From assembly GCF_006345805.1 (NCBI RefSeq), contig NC_043004.1:1860001-1924000 (forward strand): 64,000 bases of DNA. Reading direction: 5' to 3'. This DNA comes from Octopus sinensis. Its lineage: Eukaryota. The notes beneath the pieces were generated by a model. That model was not told the DNA's origin and made no database searches. It was given only the letters and a program-made list of their open reading frames with translations. Below are positions 8,737 to 61,332 of this stretch, piece by piece (position 1 is the stretch's first letter; each line of letters begins with the position of its first letter). The translations under genes were made by a program, and so were the position numbers.

Positions 8737-10092
8737 GGATCTTTTCCTTTTGATAGCCAGATTTCAACACAATTTCTAGTTAACTAAACACTTTAAAACT
8801 TCGTATACTGGTAGAATATGTCAAAAGAAAACATTATTTTCACTTGGCTTTTTTGATAAATTTGTAATTCGTTTGTTTAACGTAGTGTAATTTTTCGAAT
8901 TTTAACCAATCCTATGCTCTCTTTCGAGCTGAAATCATTTGCTGCGTTATCGATATTGATAAACAAACGAGGAGGGTTGTGTTGGCATGTACTAGAAATA
9001 ACAGCCATATCTCTTAAATCGATGAATTTCGTCGCCCAATAAAAATATTAACGATATTTTTTGAATATTTTCTTTATTTATTTTTACCAAAAAGGCTTCT
9101 CTCATGGTTTTGAAGGGCCAAAAGCAACAAAAACAAAACAATAATATGCTTAAATTGGTCTAGAGTGGGATATGAGGGTGCGCGTGGAGTGTGGGTCGGA
9201 TTGTACAAATTTGCGAAATATTTTTTCATAAAAGGATGCCCCAGCTTGTCGGAGGCTGTGATATAAATTCGGAAAAAAATCCTCGACACCAGTGAGTAAA
9301 TGGTACTTAATATATCGACCCCAAAACGATGAAACATCCATCCCCCATTTCTGGTTTATTTACCTTTTGTGTAAATTTGTTCCGGCAAGGGGCTCTATCG
9401 ACACCAGTGCGTGCGTAACTGGTACTTAATTTATCCCTAACCCTACCCTAACCCTAACCCCTAACCCTAACCCTATCCTATCTCGTGACAGCCTTCCGGC
9501 ATCGGTCGCTAGTTTTGGTTAGGTTTAGGATTAGGGGTTAGGTTCAGGATTAGGGGTTAGGTTTAGGGTTAGGTTTAGGGTTAGCGGTTAGGGTTAGAGT
9601 TAGGGATAAATTAAGTACCAGTTACGTACTGGGGCCGGTCTAAACAACGGCAGTAATTCGTTATCGATATTGATAAATAAACGTGAATTTACTAATAATC
9701 GTAAAGAAGAAATTTACTAATAAATATATAAACATGTGCGCATGCACACATGTATGTATAACATTTATGTGTGCGGATGACTAAAGAGCGAGACAGACGA
9801 GACAGACAGAAGAGAGAAGGATGAATAACACGTGTGTGTGCGCTGTTTACGTAACAGTAACCAGGATGTCTCAGTTTTTAGACGCAGCAAATGATTTCAG
9901 CTCAAATACTGGCGATTCATTGGTTAAAATTCGAAGAATTAAACTACGTTAAACTTACAAATTACAAATTTATCAAAAAACCCAAGTGAAAATAATCTTT
10001 TCTTTTGACACATTCTACCAGTATACGAAGTTTCAAATTGTTTAGTTAACTAGAAATTGTGTTGAAATCTGGCTATCAAAAGGAAAAGATCC
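8737..10092. mobile_element. Non-autonomous DNA transposon with ~210-bp TIRs and 8-bp TSD (MULE-like by structure)
   Basis: 8737-8948 (ggatcttttccttttgatagccagatttc...gctgcgt) is the inverted repeat of 9882-10092. Flanks are tataatac and tgtaatac. No transposase. Confidence 0.85.
9435..9605. repeat. Interstitial telomere-like repeats: (CCCTAA)n, ~36-bp spacer, (TTAGGG)n
   Basis: Degenerate CCCTAA units at 9435-9480 and TTAGGG units at 9517-9605. Confidence 0.85.
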
Positions 10093-11965: not shown

Positions 11966-12642
11966 GCTCAGTCTGTCTATACGTATGCATGTAAGTCTAT
12001 AGATAAGACGTTCATTAACGAAACACTTTTGTGACATGTCCTGAATCAAAGTATATATATTTTTTTATGTATTCAACAACATAAATTTGATTTTGATGAA
12101 ATAAAAATGTGAGGAGAAGAATTTCAGGAGAGAAGAAAGATTTTATACAGAAGGAAAAGAGGAAGAAGATAATAGATATGTGGGTGGGAAAATTATCAAT
12201 TTAATAGGATATTAGGGTAATCCATTGATTAATTCTAAGAAATCATCATAAATTTCAAATAAAAAAGTACTACCACAAATGTTCTGTTACATGAACTTCC
12301 TTTTTTAATATTTTCTAAGATGAATATCAAAAAGGAGGCGATCACAAAGTTCGAGAAATTGAAGACATCAGTTCACTGTTCAACAGACATAACCTATGGA
12401 TGTAATTGAATTCTAATTTCCATATGTATATCTTAACCACATGTATCACTGCTTCACAATTTTTGTGAAGCCTGAAATAAGTAGCGTGCATGCGCTCTCG
12501 CCAATACTGATTCCTTTCTTTGGAATTTTTTTGACACAGTGACATGAAAATATTTCATCGACCTCTGAGAGATGAAAGGGAAATTAGATCCAAAATAATT
12601 TAAGGATTTAGAGTAAATACTATACAATATTTTATTTCAAAT

Positions 12643-13047
12643 AAGGCGGCGAGCTGGCAGAAACGTTAGCATGCCAGGCGAAATTGCTTAGCGGTATTTC
12701 GTCTGTCACTACGTTCTGAGTTCAAATTCCGCCAAGATCGACTTTGCCTTTCATCCTTTCGGGGTCGATTAAATAAGTACCAGTTACACACTGGGGCCGT
12801 TGTAATCGACTTAATCCATTTGTCTGTCCTTGTTTGTCTCCTCTGTGTTTAGCCCCTTGTGGGTAGTAAAGAAATAGAAATAGGTATTTCGTCTGTCTTT
12901 ACTTTCTGAGTTCAAATTTTACCGTGGTCGACTTTGCCTTTCATCCTAACAGCGTCGATAAGTTAAGTACCAGTTATTTACTGGTGTCGATCTAATCGAC
13001 TGGCCCCCTCCCCCCAAATTTCGGGCCTTGTGCCAGGAGTAGAAAAG
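12643..13047 (+). mobile_element. SINE family A dimer with 17-bp TSD
   Basis: aatattttatt(t/c)caaat at 12626-12642 and 13048-13064. Confidence 0.88.
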
Positions 13048-16000
13048 AATATTTTATTCCAAATCTCCCTTTATATCAGGTTGCCTTCATCTCGTTATGT
13101 TAATCCTTTTCTTAAAAATACTGTCGCCTCAAAGTAAATGAGTCGGCTTCAACCGTGATTCAGAATAAGGCCAAGATTTTGGATTAGTTTACTGATCTTG
13201 TCATGGTATAACTGTAAATGGAGGTCTTATTTGACTCAACTCACACCCTTAAGGTGAAATAATTGTAACTGTGTGGCAACAATGCCTATCCCCTACGCCC
13301 GATTTCATATTCTATATATTTTTTATTATTTTCGACTCAGCCAACAAAGACGGGCTCAGCCTCCGAAGGTTAATAATGTGGTTGGTATTTCTCTTAAATT
13401 GTTGCAAGTTGGCAGTGAGATAATTAAATATAGTACGAAAGGGTGGAACGGGTGGATGTAATAGTAATAGCTTCAGAATATTATTGACTGCAAAGTAAAA
13501 AATCAGCCCTTGAAATACTTGGCCCAATAATGTAAAAGGCCGAAATTAAATGCTATTGAATATTCTGTCTGAGGTAACATTCTTTCAACTAAGTCTCTAT
13601 TTCTGCGTAAATATTAATTTGATTGTTAGAAGGATCGTTGTCGATTGAACCATTCTCCAAATATTACTAGTTTACATGATGTAGTCTCTTGAACAACGAC
13701 AGGCAAAAACTGAAATTTAATGTCAAAACTTTGATGGCCGTAATTAAATAACGTAAGGCAAATTTTAGTGAGTTTATTAGTTGATGACCTCTGATTTCAA
13801 TGATCTGAACTATCTCCACACGGGAGAAAACAGCGTTAAGAATCAATAGGAAATGTTACTGACTTCATTCAAACGTCTACCCAAGAGGTTAAAACAATTG
13901 AACTTCGTCTACAATGACAATTGCTATAGTCTAGGATTAAGTTTTCTCAGGAACCTAAGCTTCACAAAGGTTGAAAGCATCTCTCATCGTGTGTGCTGAT
14001 CTTTATGCCGTCTGTAAGCTAGGAGGTTAATTGGACGTTAACCATACTAAATATATATGGTCGACTCAAATTTCATAGCATTGTTTTGGATGTTGCGAAA
14101 TATGAGGAGGAGTCTCAACGCAAAATACTCAACATTTGACATATCATCTGAAAGATGTCTCATTCATTTGGAATCGTGACTATAAATGTTGTTTTCTCGA
14201 ACTTGAATAGCAATTAGATGACGTTGATAAAACTTGAAACTTTCCACTTTTAGTTCTTACACAAATAAAATTCTATAGAAAAGTAAAATATAGATGAAAT
14301 TTCAGTTTGTAATTCATTACGGATTTATCGTTATCGATGGTATAAATGTACTTTCATGGTCAGTGCCAAACCAGAAAAGTGTCGAACTAAATTGCTGTTA
14401 TACTTAGACCCCTCATTCTTCCTGGATCTAAACACTACATGATCTGGCGTCGCTTTTATCCATTTGCCCTTAATTGAATTACAAGCAGCTGACAGAGGAA
14501 ATTTTAGGGGACTGTATACTTTCTCTACAACTACGAACTTTTCTAATAAAAAGCAAATGTCTATTTTTTTTCTTTCTTTCATGATGTGTTACTGTCCGAA
14601 TTTCCAAATAGGGTCTTGTGAAATTAAGCTAGTGTAAAATTTATATAAATATGTGTGTATGAATGAATGTGAAGTTGTGCGCGTGTGTTTTGATTTTCTG
14701 TCCTTTCATACAACACCGTATCGGCCATGGAATCTCTCAATCATGAGGCTACTAGCAACGGAGGCTTTATACCATTATTCAGCTAGGGAAATGTATAACA
14801 TTAATTTCTGTTTATTTTTCAAGGCCTCCCAGACTGGCTCGGTTGCATGCAACGGGCTGAACTCTATTGCAGTCCGCCAGACTATTAAATTGTACAACAG
14901 TTTTTATCTAGTTCCCAAGAATTCAGAACGCAAACAACCAGAGTGATGCTGAGCAGGCCAAATTCATCCGATACGAAACGCTGCCAATACACCAAAATGG
15001 ATAAGAAGACTTCGAAAAAAGAGAGAATAAATACATAAAAGTAACAACGACCTCAACAGGATCTGAACTCTGACCGCAAACTGACGGAACTCTTATGCCA
15101 GTTATTTTGTCTTACGCGCTAACAACTCCGCCAATTCACCGTTTTGCACATTGATGTGCGTTGAACCTCTTTCTCTACGTAAAAAACCCCAAACAAGTGT
15201 AACGATGCTTTTAAGGCTGCTATTTTCTTTAATATTTATTAGATGCAACTTAGGGTATCTGTAAAGTCTTTGCTGCAGATGTAGGCCTTGATTTGCAACT
15301 AAAACCAATTTCTCTCCTGTCACAAGATGTGAATTTTTCAATAACATGTTCTTTTGTGATGCATTTAAATAAACCGTTAATGATCCCTTGCATGTTTGTG
15401 ACGGTCACCTGGTCAAGTGGTAACAAGATGAGTCATTGGACACTACAATCCTGTTTTAATTAATGGTGGAAGTTAGCTAACTGCAGTTAAAGAAAAAGAC
15501 AAATTTGACATCATTTGAACTCAGAACATAGTAGTTCAATATTATTACGGTAAAACATTTGAGTCTATATCTCCTTTAATATTGTCTTTCCCTAGAGATT
15601 CTTCTGTGTCAACCGCGATATATTTAGAAGAAAAAATAATCGGCAAAGCCTATATTTTTAAAGCTATAAAACCAATTACAACAATTAGTTTTCTCGCTGT
15701 ATGTAAACCGAGAACTCGTTTAATTTTCACAGAAATTTAAGCGAAAACCTGATAAATAGTTTCGTTCGAATCACCAAATGATTAATCTCCAGCAGAGAAT
15801 TTCTGTAAAACTATTCCAAACTACTGAAGGATGAAATTTTGAGATTGTGTTCGCGGCTGGTGTTACACGACATGGTTCCGTTTTACAGAGAGAGAAAAAT
15901 GTCTTGTCATATTGCCTTCGCTTGTTGTCTTACAATCATTTTCTTTTTGCCTGTTGCGATGAAATACTTTCCCTGACCTAGCAATCAGGCCAACCAGTAA

Positions 16001-17187
16001 GAAGACTCGATTCTGTCTGTAAGCCAGGCTAACAAGTGTATAAATATTCTGTTTGTTATACGGAACAGAACGTTTTGACATATCATGCTTTATTTTCTGT
16101 TTTGTTTTTTCCATCTTCACAATTGTTATTCCACTTTTCCGTTATTATCTTATGCAACCTAAAGAAATAAAATTGCTTCTTTCGTATACCTCTCCCCCTA
16201 AAAAAAGCGAAAGCAAAAAATGAGGAAATAACAAAGTAATCCTCATTTTCGTATGCGCTTTCTTTTAATTCTTTTTATTCATCCATTTAATAATCCATTT
16301 TCTCTGTTACTTAATACATGCCTTTGTTTTGTTATTTGTATCTTTTTTTTTATTTATATTTCATTCCCAGAAAATGGTTAAATAACATTTTTATCTTACA
16401 GGAAAAAATCCCCAACAAAAATGATGTGAAGAAGAAATTTAGTAGAGAGAAATAAATGCTAACACCCCTCCCCCATACCACACGCACATTCATAAAAAAA
16501 ACCCAGAAATGCTATTCTCAACTGATAGGTCTTTATTAAAAAAATAGATAATTTCTGCAAAACACTGGCGGTAAACCAACCTAAGATGGCTGAAAGACCT
16601 TTACAGGAAAAAGACAAAAAGAGACATTAATATAACATAATGAAGCATAATTTAGCGTTCTTCTTCTCAAGTCTACATTGCAAATATATAGAAATGGCAG
16701 TACTTCAGAACTTCTAATTATTTCTTCCGCTGTAGTATCTATTGTATCTTTTATATACAATCTTTTCATTATTAAATATTTTTTCTTAACTTCACATGGC
16801 ATCGTATTGGCCCCCAATAATTATCTCATTCCGGTCTTTTATGCATCTGTTTTATAGCATGATTGTATAAAGATTTCAAGTTAAAGCGACTTTATCTCAA
16901 CTATTTTGTATTATAGAAATATAACTGAAATGTTTACGTGAGAGATGTCGATGCTTTGGTGACCATTTACCTCGTCGGTAAAGACAGTTAATCACACAAT
17001 GTATATCATTTGCTGTATATATTGGTGAAGAACAGATGAAAGAACATTATATATAAATATATTTCCGAAAAATAGTAAATGTCTTAGGATGTTAATTGAA
17101 AATAACTTTAGAGTATTTCTAAAAATTTGGTGACGTTTAAATAAAAGGCAAGAGCTCTACACCAGGTAGAAACACAGCAAGTACAAC

Positions 17188-17622
17188 CTTCCCTTTCATG
17201 GGACTTTCGCATTAAGTTGACAACACACCATTATTTTATCGTGTTACTCTGAGAGATTTAGAAATGTATTATTTCTATATTTGAAATCAGTGAACGTATT
17301 TCACTTGAATTATTATATGTTTACAGAGGCAGATAGGCATCGACAGCTAACAAGCCATGCTACTCCAGACTGATGACGAGCAATGACTCAGAAACTAGTC
17401 TCTGGATGCTGGCTTTGCTGTGTGGAGGTGCTTATCTCCGCCTTTGTAAACATAAGGACACAGGAAATGTGTCAAGGCCGACAGGAAGCGGGGCTCCCTA
17501 GGGCTAAATAGCAGTAGTATTCTTCCGTTTCATGGGACTGTCACACTAATTTGACAACATACCACCACTTTATCGTGTTACTACTGTATAAATCTCTGAG
17601 AGATTTAGAAATGTATTATTTC
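17188..17622 (+). mobile_element. Retrozyme-like or Penelope pLTR-like partial tandem unit (~334-bp period) containing the HHR
   Basis: Imperfect direct repeats at 17188-17275 and 17522-17622 flank a structured non-coding interior that contains the HHR. Confidence 0.65.
17352..17415 (+). ncRNA. Minimal type-I hammerhead ribozyme, intact core
   Basis: UCCAGA(17364-69)-CUGAUGA-C-GAG caauga CUC-A-GAAA-CUAG-UC/UCUGGA(17401-06). Perfect 6-bp stem I extended by AAGCCA/UGGCUU, palindromic stem III ACUAGU, GUC cleavage triplet ending at 17400. Confidence 0.85.
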
Positions 17623-18899
17623 CACGTATAATGTTGTTCCTCTACACGAGATATGGTTAAATAATTACTGTCTGTGCATAACAAGCCAGATAGGAGTCGG
17701 TGCGACACACACACACGCACACACACACATACATACACGCACACACGCACAATCACACACACACATACACGCACACACGCACACTCACACAAACATACAC
17801 GCATACACACAATTCTCTATACTGATGCATCATATTTCATAATATTTTTCCAACTTGATTTTCACATTGTTTACTTATATATATATATATAGTTGTCGCT
17901 TCCGTCTTCGATTTCGTTTCATAAGCTAGGCTTTTGAAGGATTTACGCTTGAACTTCCGCGATATCTTCGATAATATTTACCATTTTATTTTTAAGATAA
18001 TATTGCTTTAAGCGAAATACCTAAACTTTTTCCAATTAAGTGGTTTCGACTAAGATTACTATTTGGTTCCACATTTTAGCTTATTACAAGAGTAACCCTT
18101 GAAAGACATGACCTGAGAAGCAGGCAATGTTGGTCTCAAACAACAAAAGGAAGTGTGTACAATAGAAAAGAAAACATCAAAGCGATGGCTTACCCTATTC
18201 TTAAGTAGTTGTTATGCCTAGCACTCACCTAACTGGCGAGCGAGGTAATACAGCTAAATTAACATGGATGAAAATTTATAAATTTTACTCTAAAAATGGA
18301 TTGCATAAGTTTTTAACAATGAAGTGGAGGGCTTCTGTCTTGGACCGTAGAAAGAACAGTAAATGTGCCTATATAAAGGATCATTACTCAAGACAAATTA
18401 ATGCTGGATATATACAAAAAGAAAAAGGAAAAGATATTGCAAGATATTCCAAAACCACTTAACAGATTTTCTACTTTTCTCTTTCTCTCTTCCTTCCTTC
18501 TCTCCACTGTTAGAAGAAAAAAAATTGATCTGTCTTTAACTGTGACTTTAATCTTTGTTTACAAATGAACAGAGGGAATAATTCGAAAATCTCAAGTTGA
18601 ACCGTGCTGAAGATTCCACAGAAAGATGAAATGATATCGTACATGTCTACTATGACAGTAATAAAGAATAATAATAAAACAAAAATTATATTTCGGTTGG
18701 CGGCCACTCTGCATTTGCCGGTCTTCATTTAAAATGGAGCGAAACCAGCAAACTCCCAAGTAATAAAGATCGGACATATCAAAAGCTTACGATTGATCCA
18801 AACTATGTTTTCAGTCGTTATAACTAGGGCAATATTTTTTAATCCTACACAAACTGTGCTAGAAAAACGAGGACAACCCATGGATTTCTATTCACGCTG

Positions 18900-20623: not shown

Positions 20624-20767
20624 GGTTCCGGGTTCAGTCCCACTGCGTGGCAACTTGGGTAAGTGTCTTCTACTATAGCCTCGGGCCTACCAAAGCCTTG
20701 AGAGTGGATTTGGTAGACGGAAACTAAAAGAAGACCGTTGTATATATGTATATTTATATATACGTGT

Positions 20768-20821
<54 letters not shown>

Positions 20822-20994
20822 TTGTGCGTCTGTGTTTGTCGCCCCAACATCGCTTGACAACCGATGATGGTGTGTTTGTGTCCCCGTAACTTAGCCGTTC
20901 GGCAAAAGAGACCGTTAGAATAAGTACTAGGCTTATTACAAAGAATAAGTCCTGGGGGCGATTTGCTCGACTAAAGGTGGAGAATAAAAGAGTA
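20624..20994 (+). mobile_element. SINE family B, 5'-clipped
   Basis: ggttcagtcccactgcgtggcaacttggg..., internal (TG)n, 3' half present. Confidence 0.8.
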
Positions 20995-24555: not shown

Positions 24556-25123
24556 CAAGCATACATAGAGAGAAAAAGAAACAGAAATACACATTCCTAG
24601 ACAGATAGAAAGATATATACTCATTTACATATACAGATTTATTAATAACCGAATCATCAATCTGAGTAAAATACATCTTCCGCTCTCCGCTAATACAAGT
24701 ACATCAGGCTGAAGAAAGGTTTTGCGATTAGTTTAGAACTCTACGTAAATCCATGATTGCCTTATCAAGTTAATACAGTATGTTTTCAAAGAGTGATAAA
24801 CAAGGGAAGGCATAAATTATGGGCTTTACACATTTATTTATTTGCGCATCGTAGACCTACAGTTGTTTCTGATATTCATTTTAGGTGCGTTCATAGGTCC
24901 GTTTACTCAATCAGTCGACTGATCATTTGAAAAAGGTGGACGACATAAACAAATACTATAATCCTCAAAGTTTGAGCAGCAAGAACCAAAGCACACAAAA
25001 ACGAAAGTAACTTAGATGTGGGAAGATAAGAGAAGAGAATAGAAAAAAGAATTTGTTGTCATTTGTCTTTATGGGAGTATATGTGTTTTATCATAAAGCG
25101 TAAAACATAGCCCAATTCGCTAT

Positions 25124-27976
<2,853 letters not shown>

Positions 27977-28758: not shown

Positions 28759-30482
28759 ATATATATATATATATGTATATATGTATATATGTATGTATGT
28801 ATACATATATGTGCCCATACGCCCACACACGTACGAACACATGTAATTATGCAGAAGCGACATTCTTAAAATAGTTTCGCAGAAGAACCATCGACACAGA
28901 GCAGTAATATGAGATATGTCAAAAGACACATGGATTCAGAAATACTTCTGTAGGCTACAACGATCAGTATGCTGTTCAAGACGGTAGCATACTGCGCGCA
29001 ACTACTGAAGTTAATTTCACTATATTTTTATACACTTTCTTTGTAGCTTCGGTGTATATTCTCAACTCTGTTGACAACAACGTGCCCTACCTGATCTGCA
29101 TAATTTTGTGAAACATTCACAATTCAAGTAATATTCAGTCTATATTTCTATCAGAGCATGCTCATATTTTGTCATTCGTAGCTCTCAGTGTATTCAGCTA
29201 TGAGCAACATAGAAATTATACCTCATGAATACATGCATTGACTGTGATGTAGAATTCTTTTAATACATACTCCACTCTTTACGCTCATGGTGGACCCAAA
29301 GAATCTGTTCTTTGTCATCGAAAGCTTTCTTATCCATAATATAAGCGTATAAATATTTAATCTGATCCCTATGCTCTTTAGTTGTCAGACGCTTTTGTTT
29401 TAATATATGATTTGTTTGTTGGACAACTAACTGAAATGTGTGGATAACTGTCGGCTTTGACACTAGGCATTCATTTGTTCTGTCAAGCAAATTACGGACG
29501 TGGTTTCTCCCGATGATATATTGAGCTAACTGGATCCTATAAAGGAGCTGTTGTGGTAGCAGAACACGAAACACGGTTGAAATTCCTTCACTTAAATAGT
29601 ATATACTTGGCTGAATATTCCACGCATGTGTCTATCAGTTATGTAATTCTTAAGTAGGATCAACGGGACATAATGTGCCACGGCTGGGTTATTAAATTAC
29701 AGGTACCCACCAATATGATGGGTTTCCATAGTTACCGTCAACTCGTTTTCGCTCAAACGACTTCAGTTGAAACTAGGCTGTTGTGAAAGACATTCCTTCA
29801 AGACACCATGCGATGAGTTGGAACCGAGAATATCGTGATTGCGAAGAGAACTTTTTCACTACTCACCTACTTAACATCAACTGAAGAAGGGACAGTTGTG
29901 TATCAGAGCACAACATTTCTATGATGAACTCAGTTACGTCTTATTATCTCCCGATTTCATATCGTGCTACAATTCCTTTTCTCAATGAAATAAGCACCAG
30001 TGAAATAAATGGATATTTCCCTCTCCCAGCATCATGGCTTTGTGCCAATGATAGGATTAATATTTCACTGTAGTATTTGGTAGATTTGCACGATTGCTAG
30101 AACAATCGACTAGATGCATTTTTTTATTCAAACGTTGCCGGGTTTGACTTCTTTAATAATCTACTGTATCGATCAAAGAAACACCTGTGATTCATGTGGA
30201 GTCACTTTAGAATGCTCTGTATCTCTACCATTCTTGAGCACGTGGGCAATATTAATAAACGTCAATCATTGAACTACATTAATTATGGCATTAGATTTCT
30301 TCATGCTTCGAGAACAAATACTACCTGACACCACTCTGGATGACAAAATAAATACTGATGATGTGCTGCGATCAATTCAGTCTGATCTTATTTCTTCAGG
30401 AAATGATGCTTTATCATAAATAACCTTTCATAAAAAAATGTCATTAGGATTATATTTAATACAGTGCTAATAATAGTCTTAC

Positions 30483-31033
30483 GGCGGTGAACTGGCAGAG
30501 ATGTTCGCAGGCTGGACGAAATGCGTAGCCGTATTTCGTCTGCCGTTACGTTCTGAGTTCAAATTCCGCCGAGGTCGACTTTCCCTTTCATCCTTTCGCA
30601 CTGGGGTCGATATAACCGACTTAATCCCTTTGTCTGTCCTTGTTTGTCCCCTCTGTGTTTAGCCCCTTGTGGGCAGTAATGAAATAGGTATTTCGTCTGC
30701 CGCTGCGTTCTGAGATCAAATTCCGCTGAGGTCGACGTTGCCTTTCATCCTTTCGGGGTCGATTAAATAAGTACCAGTTACGCACTGGGGTCGATGCAAT
30801 CGACTTAATCCGTTTGTCTGTCCTTGTTTGTCCCTTCTATGTTTAGCACCTTGTGGGCAGTAAAGAAATAGATATTTTGTCCGTCGCTACGTTCTAAATT
30901 CAAATTCCATCAAGGTCGATTTTGTTTTTTATCCTTTTGGGATTGATAAATTAAGTACCAGTGAAACAGTAAGGTCGATGCAATCGACTAGTCCCTTCCC
31001 CTAAAATTCCAGGCCCTGTGCCTTTATTACAAA
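30483..31033 (+). mobile_element. SINE family A trimer
   Basis: One head and three bodies, each restarting at (g)tatttcgtc; the last unit has tail 2. Confidence 0.85.
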
Positions 31034-32870: not shown

Positions 32871-33004
32871 CCAATTCGATATTCGACTTATCGGAATCGA
32901 TGAAATAAATTTATTTCATCTTATTCTTTCATTAAATATATAAACTACAGTATATCTTTAAAATCTATGGCCTGCTAAATCAAGAAATCAATATACACAT
33001 AGTT

Positions 33005-33142
33005 ACATTATTTACATTATTTACATTTGACGCATATTTTTCCCCATCTTGTTTGTTGTTAACACAACGTTTCAGCCTTCTTCAGGTGTCTTGGGGAAAA
33101 TTTCGAACCTGGGTTCTCATTCCTAAGGTATCTTTCGATGTT
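33005..33142 (-). mobile_element. Second copy of the 40467 HHR-bearing repeat; stem II deleted
   Basis: Minus strand reads ...gaacccaggttcgaaattttccccaagacacCTGAAGAaggctGAAAcgttgtgttaac...tgtaaataatgta. Confidence 0.75.
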
Positions 33143-33214: not shown

Positions 33215-33662
33215 GGGCTACAGCAAATATTCTGCTCAATACACAGATTTGCTTGTCAGTTGTTGACCTTAACCAGTTGAGCATGTCCCTTAGTGGCTGA
33301 CGATATGTGCATCTCTGATCACGAGCAGAAGTAGTGGGGGAGCATCATGGCCATGTGTTGAGAGGGATTCTGGAGTTTGAATGGTTCACCTCTGGAAACA
33401 TAGGTGTTTCGTTCAACATCCTAAAGCAACCCTTATTCAGGGACCGTTTGAGCAGGATGGGCTACTCAACCTGAAGAAAATTCTAACTGGGCCCCACCTG
33501 CAAGGTCATGTGCTGTTATCTTGATATGAGATCACCATGTCGCGCACATATGGTTGTGATGCATGTGCCTGGTGACCTTTATCAACGGGTAGTCATGAGG
33601 GTATATGGGCTTCGTATATTTTACCCCAGTGTCACTTTGATGGCATGAACTGCTCTCTACTC
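33215..33662. mobile_element. 448-bp non-coding insert bounded on both sides by (TAA)n; probable 3' part of another TAA-tailed retroposon
   Basis: GC-richer unique sequence with sharp (TAA)n boundaries at 33214 and 33663. No ORF and no similarity to the copy 2 UTR. Confidence 0.55.
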
Positions 33663-33679
33663 AATAATAATAATAATAA

Positions 33680-35566
33680 AAAGGCCTTCGACAGTATACC
33701 GCATCCATGGATCTTGAGATCGCTGGACATCTTCAAAATTTCCCCTGTGATTTCAAACTTCCTGAAGCACAATATGTCGTTGTGGAATACGAATCTCCAA
33801 TTATACCACTCTAATGGAGTACTTGCCTCAGAAAATATAAACATCAACTGTGGAATTTTTCAAGGTGACTCACTTTCACCTTTAATATTCTGCATAGCCC
33901 TAATACCCCTTACAAGTGAATTAAACAGAACAGGGTATGGGTATAAAATTGCCAATAAAAAAATAAGCCATCTTTTATATGGATGACTTAAAACTTTATG
34001 GTAAAGACAATAATGAACTTGAAGGCCTATTGCGCACCGTGAAATCATTCAGCGATGACATCGGGATGGAGTTTGGACTTGAGAAGTGTGCCAAGGCCAC
34101 TTTCCAGAAAGGGAAAGTGAAGACCACAAATTCAGTCGTGTTAGATGTTGACACAGTCATAAGAGAGCTTGAGCAAGAACAAACATACAAATATTTAGGG
34201 ATAAATGAAGGCTCTGGTATTCAGCATGCAAGCATGAAAGAGATAATCAGGAAGGAATGTTATAGGAGAGTTCGTGCAGTCCTGAAATCTGAACTAAATG
34301 CATGTAACAAGGTGTTAGCTATAAATTCCCTAGCAGTTCCAGTTGTTACTTATAGCTACAATGTGTTGAACTGGAATATGAGTGAAGTAAAGAATATAGA
34401 TAGAAAAATACGCAAGCTGCTGAGTTGTAATAGGATGCACCACCCAAAGGCAGACGTAGATCGCCTTTACCTTCCCAGAGCCCAAGGAGGTCGAGGCCTG
34501 ATCCAATTTGAACTAGCTTACAAAACAACCACAATTGGACTGGCCAAATATCTCGAAATATCGAATGACTGGATGCTAAAGCTCGTGGAAAATCACGAGA
34601 GACGAAAGAAGCTTCATTCTATCATCAAGGAAAGCAAAAAATTGCTATTGATCTCGTGCAGGATACCCAAACTGAACAACCCGAGGGAAGTACGGCAACT
34701 ATTGTTGCAAAGAAGGTGAAAATGATGGCAATGAAAAAAGCGCACGAGCAATTGGCTGATAGGTGGGAGGAGAAACCTCTGCACGGCAAATATGTGACCC
34801 GCAGCAAACAAGCTGATGTTGACCAGAAGCAAACCCATCAGTGGCTGCGGAGCTCAGGGCTAAAAGCAGAGAGCGAAGGTTTCATCCGGGCTGCTCAAGA
34901 CCAAAGCCTATCAACCCGGAACTACCAGGCCAATGTGATGAAAAATGGAGCAGACCCAAAATGCCGATTCTGCAACGACATGATTGAAACAGTGGACCAC
35001 CTAATCTCTAGATGTAAAGTCTTAGCACAGTGGACCACCTAATCTCTGGATGTAAAGTCTTAGCACCAGTGGAGTATAAATTAAGACATGACAGAGTTGG
35101 CCAATATCTCCACTGGCTAATAAGTCGGCATTACAATATCAAAACTGCCGACAAGTGGTATAATCACCACCCTGAGGCTGTAACTGAAGGAGAAAATGTA
35201 ACCATTCTGTGGGACTTTCCAGTACATACAGACCGAACCATCAAGGCCAATAAACCAGATATTGTTGTGAAAGACCAAAACAATAAAGTTTGCTTATTGA
35301 TCGACATGAGCATCCCCTGTGATCATAATATCTCAGCGAAAGAGTTTGACAAGCTCAGAAAATATAAAGACCTACTCATTGAAATTGAGAAAATGTGGCA
35401 TCTCAAGGCGGTTACAATACCAGTGATCGTAGGAACACTAGGAATGATCAAGAAGGGAACCGAAAATTATATGAGAATGATCACTGGCTTACCATCCCTG
35501 CAAGAAGTGCAAAAGATTGTCTTAACTGGTACATCACACGTATTGAGAAGAGCATTGTCGATGTGA
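33680..35566 (+). pseudogene. Frameshifted RT-RLE ORF of Dong-like copy 2
   Basis: Four collinear ORF pieces (33645-33986, 33979-34719, 34656-35042, 35030-35566). Shifts fall at short T/A runs (~33975, ~34642) and at a 38-bp tandem duplication (34990-35065). Confidence 0.88.
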
Positions 35567-40466: not shown

Positions 40467-40749
40467 CTCTATATTTAAGAGATGAGAAAATTAATTACAT
40501 TATTTATATATATTTTACATTATTTACATTCGATGGATATTTGTCGTCATCTAGTTTGTTTTAACACAACGTTTCCAGCTGGTATCCCCTCCAGCCTTCA
40601 TACCTTAGCAATGAGAACCCAGGTTCGAAATTTCCCCAAGACACCTGATGAAGGCTGGAGGTATATCAGCCGAAACGTTGTGTTAATAATAAACAAGGTG
40701 AGGACAAATATCCGTCAAATGTAAATAATGTAAATAATGTAAGTAATGT
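40467..40749. mobile_element. Penelope-like terminal-repeat insertion (inverted + direct arms) with 13-bp TSD
   Basis: TSD attaatttttcag at 40454-40466 and 40750-40762. Most of 40467-40600 is the reverse complement of 40649-40749. Related copies lie at 33005 and 47121. Confidence 0.75.
40640..40684 (+). ncRNA. Minimal hammerhead ribozyme motif (Penelope-type)
   Basis: GACAC-CUGAUGA-A-GGCUG gagguauau CAGCC-GAAA-CG-UU-GUGUU: 5-bp stem I, 5-bp stem II, loopless palindromic stem III AACGUU. Confidence 0.78.
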
Positions 40750-44880: not shown

Positions 44881-47120
44881 TCTTCATCATTATTAACTTT
44901 GAGCCATGTTTTAGGCAAGACATTTAAAGCAGCCATCCCTTAGGAAGAAGAAGGTTATGAAACAGAGAAATAGTGAGAGGGGTTGAGGCAGAGAGAATGA
45001 CAGACTGATAGATCATCTTCATGATGAAGTTGTTATGTGTGTTGGTGTTCTTCATCTCCTCTCAGCCGTTCAGTGAAAGAGAAAGAAATAGAGTGAAATG
45101 TATGTAAAAATTAACTGAATAAACAGTTTAATGGAGGGAAACCTAATTGAAGATATTCAGTCAACACAGACATTGAGTAAGATTTGTGTATAAGTTACTG
45201 GGTAATTTTAGAATGGCTGACCAAGTGGTTAGGCGTCAACGAATTAATGAGTTAGGGAGCAACTCCGAGTTGGTGTGATTATTGCTTAATGGTGAGTTAG
45301 TGAGATTGTGAACTAATGTTTGTAATTGAACGAAAGCAAGAAGGAAGCGAACGGCTAAAAGAGGCGAAATTCGAAGGAAACAACAAAGAGACGGTGGAGG
45401 AGGGTTTGGAGTGGAAGAGTGAACGTGAAACAGGTTTGGTTGTGTCACAGCGGTTGTCACATTTAAAATAGCAGCAAGCAGACCGATAAATAGCATTAAT
45501 TCCTCCCCGCAAATTCTCAAATTGGTCGGAATGACGGGGAAATTAGAAGAATAGAAGCTTCCATTGCTTCTCATTTATTTATCTTAGACTGATTTCGAAG
45601 ATAATCGGTCAAATTACGCGAACTATCAAGAAGAATAAGTCTATAAAATGATAAATTTGTAGACGATGATGAAAAAATTCGTAACAAAAAAGCGAAATAA
45701 ACGCTAAAATAGAAGCCAAATTAGGAGAATTGTTGTAATGGTTGGGAGTCTAAATTGAGGAGCAAAAATTAGAGGAGAGAATCAAAATGGTGCTGAGAGA
45801 GAAAGAGATATTGATTTCGTTTGACTTGTCCCAGCACCAACTTTTACAAAGGATGTTGTATATCTCACTGAATCAAAATCAGCTTATTACTGGTACTTAT
45901 TTTGTCAGTTCAGAATTTATAGAACCAAAATAGATTACTAGAGAAAACTGAACCTAGAAGGATGTAAGGTAATCTCATAACTATCTATCGCTAAGATTTC
46001 TCTCGCTATCACAGAGCGTGGCAGCTGCACGTTTCACGTCCATTCCGAATGTAAACAGACGAATATAAATGTACGAAGTAGAGAAACGAGCGCAGCATAT
46101 TATCTGACGTTTATCGCACCAAGGAGCAAGCCTGCAAATAGCTAGAAATAGCGTCTAAACATCTCTCTTATCATATCTATATATCTATCGAAGTCATCGA
46201 CATATTTTCTAATACCAAAGAAAGCAAGCTAGTCGTTATCATAATGAATGGGTGAGAGGTCGAAGTAAGAATAAGCATTAGATAAGCGGACTTGCAGTAT
46301 CGCATTTGGAGGATTAAATTTAATTAGACCGTCATCTGACATTGGACTGGGAATCTAGTTATTTTACTTGAGAGCTATGGTTCTCTGGGGGTACCTAGGG
46401 GATGGGAACTAGGACGAAGTTTGGAGTGGGATCGCTAATTTCACTTAGAAATGATTTGAACTCACCATCGAAAGTCACCAGGGGTGGTGAATGCTTACAT
46501 CGACCTTAAAATATACAACCGGGCATAAGCGATTATTTCCTGCGAAACCCATGTATTTCTCATAGCGATCTCTAACCAGAGACGATGCAACATCAAAACA
46601 TAGCAACAACAACATCAATGATGAGGAAAATAAAATTAACTCAGTACCATCACACTATTTCGGTGAGAAAACGGTCGTAAACTACTGACCAATTATTAGC
46701 ACAACTTTCAAGTGGGCCCCTGCTCGGTCAACGTCGAAGCAGCAATACCCATAAGAGAAGCAATGACGATTGGAGAAAAGTAACTGCAAGAGTTGTAGGA
46801 GATGATGAGAAAATGAGAATAGAGAAGTCGCGCTGATCGCGGTGCAAGAAGTGATTCAAGAACCTACAGAGGTACGACGCCCTACTGATACATAAACAGA
46901 AATTGTTAAAGAGATGGAAAGCTGTTTTGAAGTCGGTGTGGAAGTAGAAGAATTTTGTCAATCACAAAAGTCAATAAAGTATGACGTGAGTATAAGTATA
47001 AAAATACACAAAACTCACAAATACGGTGAAAAGTACGAAAGAAACAAAACAAATACAAAAATATCATTAATAACAGCAGCAACAACACAATCTACAGCTT
47101 TTCTCCCCCATGAATTTCAC

Positions 47121-47263
47121 TTTTACATTATTTACATTTGATGGATATTTGTCCTCATCGTGTTTGTTGTTAACGCAACGTTTCGGCTTATATAATCTCT
47201 GCCGCCTTCAGGTGTCCTGGAGAACTTTCGAACCTGGGTTCTCATTCCTAAGGTATTTTTCGA
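47121..47263 (-). mobile_element. Third, decayed copy of the 40467 HHR-bearing repeat
   Basis: Minus strand reads taccttaggaatgagaacccaggttcgaaag...gacacCTGAAGGcggcagagattatataagccGAAAcgttgcgtt; the core is mutated. Confidence 0.72.
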
Positions 47264-48958: not shown

Positions 48959-49392
48959 GGCGTAGGAGTGGCTGTGTGGTAAGTAGCTTGCTTACGAACC
49001 ACATGGTTCCGAGTTCAATCCCACTGCGTGGCAACTTGGGCAAGCGTCTTCTACTATAGGCTCGGGCCGACCAAAGCCTTGTGAGTGGATTTGGTAGACG
49101 GAAACTGAAAGAAGCCCGTCGTATATATGTATTTATGTATGTATGTATATATATGTATATGTGTGTGTGTGTTTGTGTGTCTTCGTATGTCCTCCCAACA
49201 TCGCTTGACAATCGATGTTAGTGTGTTTAAGTCCTCGTAATTTAGCGGTTCGGCAAAAGAGACCGATAGAATAAGTACTAGGCTTACAAAGAATAAGTCC
49301 TGGTGTCGATTTGCTTGACTAAAGGCCTGGCTCCAGCATGGCCACAGTCAAATGCCTGAAACAAGTAAAAGAGTACAAAGAGAGTAAAGAGA
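48959..49392 (+). mobile_element. SINE family B, full length
   Basis: tggctgtgtgg A box and gagttcaatccc B box, core, microsatellite and tail. Confidence 0.88.
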
Positions 49393-54505: not shown

Positions 54506-55090
54506 GGCGCGGGCGTAGCTGTGTGGTAAGAATTGTGCCTCCCAACTACGCGGTTCCGTGTTCAATTGCACTGCTTGAACTTTGGGCAAGTTTCTTTTAT
54601 TATCGCCTCTCAAAGTCTCGTTAGTGGATTTGGTAGACAGAAACTTAAATTCGGCGATCTGGCAGAAGCGTTACCACTGCCGCTACGTTCTGAGTTCAAA
54701 TTCCGCCGAGGTTGACTTAGCCATTCATCCTTTCGGGGTCGATAAATTAAGTACCGGTTACGCACTGGGGGTAGATGTAATCGACTTAATCCGTTTGTCT
54801 GTCCATGTTTGTCCCCTCTGTGTTTAGCCTCTTGTGAGTAGTAAAGAAATAGGTATTTCGTCTGCCGCTATATTCTTAGTTCAAATTCCGCCGAGGTTGA
54901 CTTAGCAATTCATCTTTTCGAGATCGATTAAATAAGTACCAGTTATGCACTGGGGTCGATGTAATCGACTTAATTTCTTTGTCTGCTCTTCTTTGTCCTC
55001 TCTATGTTTAGTCCCTCGTGGACAATAAAGAAATAAGAAACTGAAAGAAAGTAGTCGTGTATATATATCTGTGTTTGTCTCCCACCACCC
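54506..55090 (+). mobile_element. SINE family B interrupted by a family A dimer (54646-55035)
   Basis: Family B sequence breaks at agaaact (54639-45) and resumes at agaaact (55036-42), giving a 7-bp TSD. Confidence 0.75.
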
Positions 55091-59475: not shown

Positions 59476-60030
59476 ATGTGAGATGGTTGAATAGAGGTAA
59501 ATATTTGAGTTCGAAATAAGGAATTATTGTGGAAAAGGAGGAGATAGAGAATACAGAGGGAAATAAATGAATAAAAGTAGAAATAAAATATAGAATACAA
59601 ACCATATAAAGATATATAAAACATATAAAGTTTCTACACATCACTTTCCGCGAATAACGGAATTGCAACTACAATATCTTAATATATTTTATATTTTATA
59701 GGCTTTTGTTATCTCATTTGGTCTAGCATTTTGTCTACACATCTATTGTTGTATTTTGGGATGGTCTGCAATTAACATTATTCTCTCAGTGCCCAGCCTT
59801 TATCATTGTGGAGAAATAAATACAACAAATAGCCGTTTTTATAGTCAGAATTCAATAAGCTAGACTACATTCTCACAAGATCAAAGCTGCAAATAGATTT
59901 TAACCGAGTTGATCCGAGTTCGAGGCGTACGACAGAAGCGGTGTTGTTTTCGTCACAGTCTGGTCGATGAAGTGAGAAGCGGTTAGACACCCATTTCAAG
60001 CTATTCAATTACAATTCTCTTCTATCTCTC

Positions 60031-60242
60031 TTAGTCTTTTACTTGTTTCAGTCATTTGACTGTAGCCATGCTGGAGCACTGCCTTTGGTCGATCAAATCG
60101 ACCGCAGGACTTATTCGTTGTAAGCATAGTACTTATTTTATCCGTCTATTTTGTCGAACCGCTAAGTTACGGGGATGTAAACACACAGGCATCGGTTGTC
60201 AAGCGATGTTCGGGGACAAACACAGAGACACAAACATACACA

Positions 60243-60273
<31 letters not shown>

Positions 60274-60464
60274 CACATATATATATATATTTATATACAT
60301 ATATACGACGGGCTTCTTTCAGTTTCCGTCTACCAAATCCCCCCTCAAGTCTTTGGTTGGCCCGAGGCTATACTAGTAGACACTTGCCCAAGGTGCCACG
60401 CAGTGGGACTGAACTCGGAACCATGTGGTTCGTAAGCAAGCTACTTACCACACAGCCACTCCTG
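60031..60464 (-). mobile_element. SINE family B, full length
   Basis: Reverse-complement match to 48959-49392. Confidence 0.88.
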
Positions 60465-61332
60465 CTTTTCGTGAAAAGATATCTAAATTACTATTGTGCT
60501 CGGCCATACGTACATAAAGTTTGAGGACAACATCAGTATTTCATGCGTTTAACAAAATAATGCAACGTCATGCAAAACTTACAAGCAAGGATTGAAACCG
60601 TGGTGCTGTCTCGTCTTTAATCATAAAAGGCTCGAAATTCATCTCTGTTTTATATTTTGTTGCTATCCTAAAGTGGAGTACCTTGCTGAGTCCTGTAAAA
60701 TATGATATTCTTGACTTGGGTAACAGTTAAAGAAATAGCTATATCGGCGAAGAAGTATGTACTACCAGGAACTGTATCTACTGAGAGATTACCACTTTAC
60801 GCACTCTACGGAAATAACGATTACGATATAAACTACCTGTAAACGGGGAAAAATATCTTATAATTGATTATTTGACAATGCACATTCAATCTATATAACA
60901 AGTTCACTTTGAATAATTAAACTTGTGAATCTGTTACACCAGGAGATGAGATTATATATTTATTAAACACAATAAAATATCAGAAATAACGGTTTCATTT
61001 TATTAACACGAATATCTTAAAGCTATGGAAAGGCACGTGACTTAGTAGATCAGTAAATGGACTTCGATAAGGTCATGGGTTCGATTCCTTTACAGAGAGA
61101 AGCATTATATCCTCAAATGAGGTACTTTATTTCATGTTGCTCCGGCGTATTAAGACAGATAGAATTCCCGATTAGGATCAAGTTCACAATGATACGACTA
61201 AAATCTTGAAGCACGATCAAAGACAACACTTACTGTGGACTGCTATGTTCTGCCTTCACCCTCCGCTCACAAGGGAAGAAACAGGAATTTATGACATTTA
61301 TTTCCCAAAGCCGTTATTATTTACTTAATTAG

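Follow-up and report, generated by a model that had tools for sequence, protein, structure and literature searches.

Positions 17188-17622 of the window, as we call the whole 64-kb stretch of DNA analysed here, hold one copy of a widely repeated, non-coding unit of about 345 nt that bears a hammerhead, the locus amounting to 1.3 units. We consider it probable that the locus is an aged genomic copy, 1.3 units long, of a hammerhead repeat family that has many copies and works as a metazoan non-LTR retrozyme. The family is likely a new one within that class, and likely a non-autonomous derivative of Penelope-like elements. Its features at this locus are collected in Table 1.

Table 1. Features of the hammerhead-bearing locus, in positions of the window
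Feature	Position	Strand	Basis or remark
Truncated upstream repeat	17188..17275	+	last ~100 nt of the unit, minus 13 nt that the second repeat and the family have
Full unit, non-coding	17276..17622	+	347 nt, GC 0.415
Side hairpin	17289..17305	+	pair 17292-17302, probability 0.996
5' arm of 24-bp basal rod helix	17316..17339	+	folding; family-minority letters at 17323 and 17326
5' side of middle helices, with unpaired UAC bulge (17361-63) adjoining stem I	17344..17363	+	folding
Stem I, 5' strand	17364..17369	+	pairs with 17401-06, 6 bp
Core CUGAUGA	17370..17376	+	sequence
Stem II	17377..17390	+	three pairs above a C-A mismatch at 10.1-11.1; loop of six bases (17381-86), the last of them A
Core GAAA (17391-94), self-complementary stem III (17394-99), C17	17391..17400	+	predicted cut after 17400, from the hammerhead consensus
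Stem I, 3' strand, and an unpaired U seven nt past the predicted cut	17401..17407	+	folding; U is position 1.7
3' side of middle helices and 3' arm of basal helix (17429-54)	17408..17454	+	folding; family letters in loose ends
Side hairpin	17457..17473	+	folding; bin of highest summed depth in 4/4 runs
Second repeat copy (3' end of full unit)	17522..17622	+	repeat comparison

A partial tandem of a short non-coding unit

The full copy is preceded by a truncated one, which is the layout of a partial-tandem insertion. Sequence comparison finds a direct repeat in two blocks, one of 61 nt with copies 334 nt apart and one of 29 nt with copies 347 nt apart; the spacing changes from the start of the repeat to its end because the first repeat lacks 13 nt. 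A direct repeat of roughly 90-100 bp in about 1.3 copies, as given in the earlier note, is therefore present, but the single period of 334 has to be replaced by 334 or 347, depending on the side of the gap. Among the loose contig ends listed, those before 17247 carry the 13 missing letters in all four runs described below, and the family unit is therefore near 347 nt. Gap aside, 88 places of the two repeats can be aligned, and 9 of them differ, all among the 59 before the gap and none among the 29 after it. The flanks of the element have two 8-mers in common, in crossed order and 17-50 nt from the ends, which are not callable as a target-site duplication; in non-LTR retrozymes such duplications, where they occur, exceed 4 bp.

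With a size of 334-347 nt and a GC content of 0.415-0.42, the unit lies inside the retrozyme range of 150-450 bp and less than 50% GC, and the retrozyme sizes and GC contents given in PMC7229834 fit 334-347 nt and 0.42. No Pfam family scores above cut-off in any of 77 ORFs (at least 45 aa, complexity-filtered) at 12.3-21.2 kb, and this locus has neither an ORF with reverse transcriptase and GIY-YIG between pLTRs nor a reverse-transcriptase relic nearby. An 'active' retrozyme locus has been defined as two complete units (bioRxiv 10.64898/2026.07.22.740005), a rule that 17188-17622, with 1.3 units and one hammerhead, fails.

Copies of the unit in sequencing runs

Part of the stretch is contained in 20 of the 24 runs listed, from 13 studies and four coded organisms. 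Contigs of four runs (X1, X4, X10 and X15) were aligned to 16701-17700 at 80% likeness; X1, X4 and X10 are DNA runs from organisms A, B and D, with X4 and X10 coming from two other studies. X1, which has no differences from the window in 576 nt, may be the window's own sample. In X1, X4 and X10, respectively, 2253, 3228 and 3521 contigs align, and the left flank is represented by single contigs. The limits 17188-17622 agree with summed contig depth, which goes up in the bin that starts at 17177 and drops in the one that starts at 17619. Within 17177-17618 this depth is 190- to 20,000-fold above that of the flank, a ratio in which overlapping short contigs are overcounted and which is not a copy number; divided by 31 it becomes 6-660, again no copy count. 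The stretch belongs to a multi-copy family. A single-copy locus, which the earlier note had named as the finding that would speak against its reading, is excluded by thousands of contigs on the unit as against single ones on the flank in 3 of 3 DNA runs.

Joints within contigs include ones that jump back 333 or 349 places. Among the 15 of 48 joints listed, 17524>17192 and 17595>17247 occur in X1 and X4, the latter with 99 and 82 letters on its shorter side, and 17619>17284 and 17487>17188 occur in X4. Loose ends before 17188 read like 17506-21 (among the 24 of 827 loose ends listed). From these joints and loose ends it follows that, in other copies, the end of the unit joins its start and the repeat joins the middle. 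The junctions fit head-to-tail units, although they would also arise from repeat-middle-repeat copies alone, and no aligned contig in the four runs spans two full units. For X15, guessed to be an RNA run, 257 contigs align to the unit but the flank has none, and depth along the unit resembles that in the DNA run of the same organism (Spearman 0.87). DNA carry-over would look alike, and contigs show neither strand nor ends nor level. A 6165-nt contig of X10 matches the left flank to 17049 and is then unlike the window, and X10 and X4 lack cover at 17653-17700; since missing cover proves nothing, neither observation amounts to an empty site or an insertion date.

A classical hammerhead with an odd pair at the base of stem II

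The type I hammerhead core spans 17370-17400, at the tip of the rod, with GUC ending at 17400. The positions proposed earlier for CUGAUGA, GAAA and GUC and for a perfect 6-bp stem I (17364-69 with 17401-06) are borne out by the sequence. Like classical type I hammerheads, the motif has all core bases, a 6-bp stem I, a U at position 1.7 and a loop II ending in A; at 10.1-11.1, the stem II base pair against the core, it has a C17377-A17390 mismatch, with only three pairs above; the earlier note does not mention this mismatch. The word 'canonical' thus suits the core letters but not this mismatched pair, and 'intact' is overstated, given the mismatch and a lowest-energy fold that slips stem I into the core. 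Nor does the label 'minimal' apply, because the geometry is classical, with a 6-bp stem I, a stem II of four positions and a short palindromic stem III. In PMC4209133, classical metazoan hammerheads have a 6-bp stem I, a 4-bp stem II and a short palindromic stem III and are dimer-dependent, and the minimal Penelope hammerheads usual in metazoan pLTRs have a 7-8-bp stem II and a 4-5-bp stem I. The long stem II, short stem I and lack of tertiary bases of the minimal type are not found in the 17370 motif. In PMC11875169, the tertiary contact is formed by an unpaired U seven positions beyond the cleavage site together with the terminal A of loop II, and the motif has both bases.

A hammerhead descriptor run on both strands of the 64-kb window returns two loci, at 17370 and 40645. 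In 300 dinucleotide shuffles of the window, 0.01 loci per shuffle have a stem I of at least 6 bp and 0.087 one of at least 4 bp. Rfam gives no hits at the gathering score across the 64-kb window, and narrower Rfam searches return 8 and 2 weak hits with no hammerhead family among them. The blank at 17370 says little, because Rfam also misses the clear minimal hammerhead at 40645.

Position 10.1-11.1 holds the second most conserved pair, where U-U is the best-tolerated mispair, and the survey in PMC3088659 that reports this rejected hits with mispairs there. The C-A mismatch may cripple cleavage. Our literature search found no publication on a hammerhead ribozyme mismatch at G10.1/C11.1; the supplement drawings of mussel and other invertebrate hammerheads in PMC7229834 may contain this core variant.

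Folding of the rod

As RNA, the 435-nt stretch folds at -132.7 kcal/mol (z -5.67), and 0 of 100 shuffles are equally stable. The long helix of the rod (17316-39 with 17429-54), earlier put at about 25 bp, is confirmed with 24 bp, a 2-nt bulge and two G-U pairs, the four pairs checked having probabilities of 0.998-0.999. The side hairpins at 17289-17305 and 17457-17473 that had also been predicted are equally well supported, with 0.996-1.0 for pairs 17292/17302 and 17460/17470. In the window copy, A17345-U17419 of the CAGC/GCUG helix has a probability of 0.21, and A17369-U17401 of stem I one of 0.38. The open-core hammerhead fold is 1.7 kcal/mol costlier than the lowest-energy fold with its slipped stem I. 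A strand-swapped double-hammerhead dimer is estimated at -30.4 kcal/mol, as against -26.0 for twice the lowest monomer fold and -13.6 for twice the active monomer; the folding estimate thus favours the dimer.

The rod has z -6.26 on the plus strand and -4.45 on the minus strand, and single-stranded DNA also folds well (DNA z -4.33 and -3.21). Because the minus strand and single-stranded DNA fold well, the two G-U pairs alone do not single out RNA over DNA, and the earlier argument from these pairs against a DNA palindrome is weak. That two of two wobble pairs are G-U on the plus strand has a chance expectation of one in four. Moreover, G17326 is a minority letter, with A in 69-78% of depth in the three DNA runs, so that the majority of the family has A-U here.

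Variation within the family

The variant table rests on pooled contigs, not single molecules, and 40 of its 117 rows are listed, 24 of them inside the element. At 14 of these 24 places, the letter of the window is in the minority in each of the three DNA runs; the window copy is therefore diverged. Among the listed rows, 1 of 67 places is variable in 17354-17420 (17384, in loop II) as compared with 23 of 280 elsewhere (Fisher p 0.034), a range that was chosen after seeing the table; the narrower core range 17364-17406 has 1 variable place in 43, which is not significant (p 0.17).

Two places in the rod give hints of compensatory change as judged from these pooled letters. For instance, 17323 is T instead of A in 55-65% of depth in X1, X4 and X10, and its partner 17447 is A in the loose-end consensus of all three. 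Likewise, 17353 is G instead of A in 64% of depth in X4, where a loose end has C at the partner 17414; in X1, G reaches 25% and 17414 is T. The middle helix is better paired in the family, with A at 17416 opposite U17348 (pooled letters), and the window copy has unpairing changes in this helix relative to the family at 17350 and 17421. In a variant from X10 (9 contigs, agreement 0.94), the stem III palindrome ACUAGU becomes ACAUGU, which is still self-complementary. That family variants seem to keep the rod paired and stem III palindromic hints at selection on RNA structure.

Neither 17377 nor 17390 is among the variable places listed (40 of 117 rows), and a loose end in X15 shows A at 17390. 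Taken together, these letters make C-A the likely family state at 10.1-11.1. A sister variant from X10 (organism D, a loose end behind 17395) has stem II in common with the window copy, but its stem III loop is reversed and its distal stem I differs. The hammerhead family likely has subfamilies with other rods.

Other elements of the window

The window is AT-rich (GC 0.31-0.41), with 98 microsatellite rows, dispersed short repeats and two LINE-type reverse-transcriptase regions. No host gene appears among the 155 ORFs scanned (77 near 17188-17622, and 78 of the 104 elsewhere in the window), and the window reads as non-coding animal DNA. A long open LINE-type ORF at 25097-27976 (+), which we take to be R4/Dong-like, lies within a TAA microsatellite (RVT_1 E 8e-29), its best relatives being about 52% identical. 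At 33576-35566 (+), a relative from this LINE group is broken up over four frames and flanked by TAA runs; one part of it is 96% identical to a database protein (P0121). One SINE-like family occurs in many places, such as 1146-1539, 20624-20977, 48964-49392 and 60016-60465, and another, with partial tandems of period ~184, at 12640-13058, 30480-31033 and 54677-55040, among others. At 9435-9605, two short telomere-like hexamer runs face each other inside an inverted repeat (8737-8947/9882-10092).

A second hammerhead family, of the minimal Penelope type, is found at 40510-40745, with related copies at 33000-33140 and 47120-47260 (minus strand). Its core at 40645 has an unpaired base after A9, a 6-bp stem II, a 2-base palindromic stem III and a 5-bp stem I. 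The forward copy at 40.5 kb is preceded on its 5' side by a truncated copy in inverted orientation, an arrangement described for Penelope-like insertions; in the 33 kb copy, part of stem II is missing. The unit at 17276-17622 has no likeness to this family (best E 0.16). Given the presence of a Penelope-type minimal hammerhead family in the same window, Penelope-like elements were likely active in this genome.

Relation to known elements

The closest known elements are metazoan non-LTR retrozymes (Mytilus, 350-390 bp; axolotl Rtz_331 and Rtz_353; Acropora, 220-245 bp; PMC7229834). Like these, the element is short, AT-rich and multi-copy and lacks an ORF, and it has a single classical type I hammerhead, a short palindromic stem III and a strongly self-paired fold that leaves the ribozyme nearly free. 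It differs from them in having C-A instead of G-C at 10.1-11.1, in a sequence unmatched to searchable families and in being known here as a 1.3-unit DNA copy. The axolotl HHR_Amex2 of Rtz_353 resembles it in a mismatch at the base of stem II that is probably family-wide here too, in unit length and in the better cleavage expected of dimers: with U-U at 10.1-11.1, its monomer cleaves 22% in an hour and its dimer does better (PMC7229834). That mismatch, however, is the one best tolerated according to PMC3088659, whereas ours is C-A and accompanies a stem III with a 2-base loop. The class proposed in the earlier note accordingly stands, on the strength of a multi-copy, self-closing unit with a classical type I hammerhead, hints of covariation and no ORF; its further claim of a copy of one circular RNA goes too far, given the differences between the repeats.

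The UAC bulge at 17361-63 presumably resembles the stem I bulge of Schistosoma Sm-alpha. That element likewise has a type I hammerhead with a bulged stem I and a loop II ending in A (contact: PMC11875169). Unlike Sm-alpha, the unit has no tRNA gene (tRNA genes: 0) and no B-box within one mismatch, so that a tRNA-like SINE head is absent. With the pLTR hammerheads of Penelope-like elements (PMC4209133, PMC8557442, bioRxiv 10.64898/2026.07.22.740005), the locus has in common a type I topology, a palindromic stem III and a partial tandem. C17377 can also be read as an unpaired base after A9, as pLTR hammerheads carry, which then leaves an extra A before GAAA. It differs from them in a unit without an ORF, a 6-bp stem I with tertiary-contact bases and a short stem II.

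Beyond the window, a strict core pattern finds 0, 0 and 0 relatives in viral, metagenome and prokaryote collections; a loose pattern gives 30 and 1 matches in these collections, none with a stem I or likeness beyond the pattern. In three contigs of one public assembly (L001, L002 and L030), a common repeat of ~45 nt shows the same C...A-flanked stem II pattern without stem I pairing; these are not relatives of the unit. Literature searches on octopus or cephalopod retrozymes, hammerheads and Penelope found no publication on such a family, which may nonetheless be catalogued under a repeat name in Repbase or Dfam.

Alternative explanations

Instead, the unit might be a pLTR, the terminal repeat of an autonomous Penelope-like element, with the locus as its 5'-truncated partial tandem, a reading that we regard as unlikely. 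A full copy after a truncated one is typical of Penelope-like insertions (PMC8557442), known elements, almost always Penelope-like ends, were matched by 24 of 57 Xenopus retrozyme families, and pLTR and retrozyme have been described as two ends of one range (both bioRxiv 10.64898/2026.07.22.740005). The depth minimum just after 17275 in X1 and X4 is as expected from a fixed 3' end with 5' truncation; in X10, however, the minimum is at 17313-46, where the window copy departs most from the family. In family contigs, the repeat is preceded by sequence of the unit itself, and at least 22 of the 24 loose ends listed read as unit variants. Furthermore, metazoan pLTR hammerheads are usually minimal, like the 40645 family and unlike the 17370 motif (PMC4209133), and the lack of a reverse-transcriptase relic near the locus also speaks against a pLTR. 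Autonomous Penelope partners may exist elsewhere in the genome.

Spread as DNA, in the form of a satellite or a hairpin-ended non-autonomous DNA element with the hammerhead as a fossil passenger, seems quite improbable. The rod does fold as single-stranded DNA, the C-A mismatch may mean a dead ribozyme, and local tandem growth by unequal crossover is allowed (bioRxiv 10.64898/2026.07.22.740005). Nevertheless, variation in loop II contrasts with a core and a stem III palindrome that persist in all three organisms, and the inverted arms are internal to the unit instead of terminal. Least credible of all is domestication of the window copy as a host regulatory ribozyme. Organism B has the same insertion, with one difference in 575 nt of flank and first repeat, and the ribozyme region is closer to the family majority than the remainder of the copy, but membership in a minority subfamily accounts for that pattern, the copy carries unpairing changes in its middle helix, and no host gene is recognised among the ORFs scanned in the window.

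Proposed mechanism

On the retrozyme reading, head-to-tail copies would be transcribed on the plus strand, and two hammerheads would pair through their self-complementary stem III and cut after the place of 17400, with the rod predicted to hold stem I for ribozyme folding. A host ligase would then close the ~345-nt monomer into a circle. A Penelope-like reverse transcriptase and endonuclease might copy circles or multimers into new sites, leaving a full unit after a truncated one. Since the locus has one hammerhead, a single copy could not release a monomer alone. Retrozyme units are transcribed, self-cleave and are circularised, probably by tRNA ligase, with Penelope-like elements proposed as mobilisers (PMC7229834), and the class is argued to derive from Penelope pLTRs (bioRxiv 10.64898/2026.07.22.740005). 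The Penelope mobilisation that the earlier note had suggested is thus already argued in print for the class (same preprint), and no Penelope ORF lies near this locus. Cleavage is not a given: of nine predicted Xenopus retrozyme dimers, eight remained uncleaved and one cleaved (bioRxiv 10.64898/2026.07.22.740005).

The 9 differences in 88 places and the 13-nt gap count against a recent copy of one circle. With a 10% difference between the repeats beside a near-unchanged ribozyme region, a template that already contained two unlike units, namely a multimer from a mixed array, fits better than a single circle copied over 1.3 turns, though the numbers are small. A-to-I editing favours an A that faces C next to a long helix. 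It is conceivable, if very improbable, that the C-A pair acts as a brake, keeping the ribozyme off until copies pair, and possibly until host editing closes stem II; were this true, the release of an abundant circular RNA would be host-switched.

Implications

With the 17370 family, the non-LTR retrozymes gain one lineage and one family, and the picture of such elements stays unchanged. A natural hammerhead with an odd 10.1-11.1 pair, missed by strict descriptors and by Rfam, suggests that surveys undercount the class. The link between retrozymes and Penelope-like elements outside vertebrates has been named as unexamined (bioRxiv 10.64898/2026.07.22.740005), and the partial tandem described here, beside a separate Penelope-type hammerhead family, is a test case for it.
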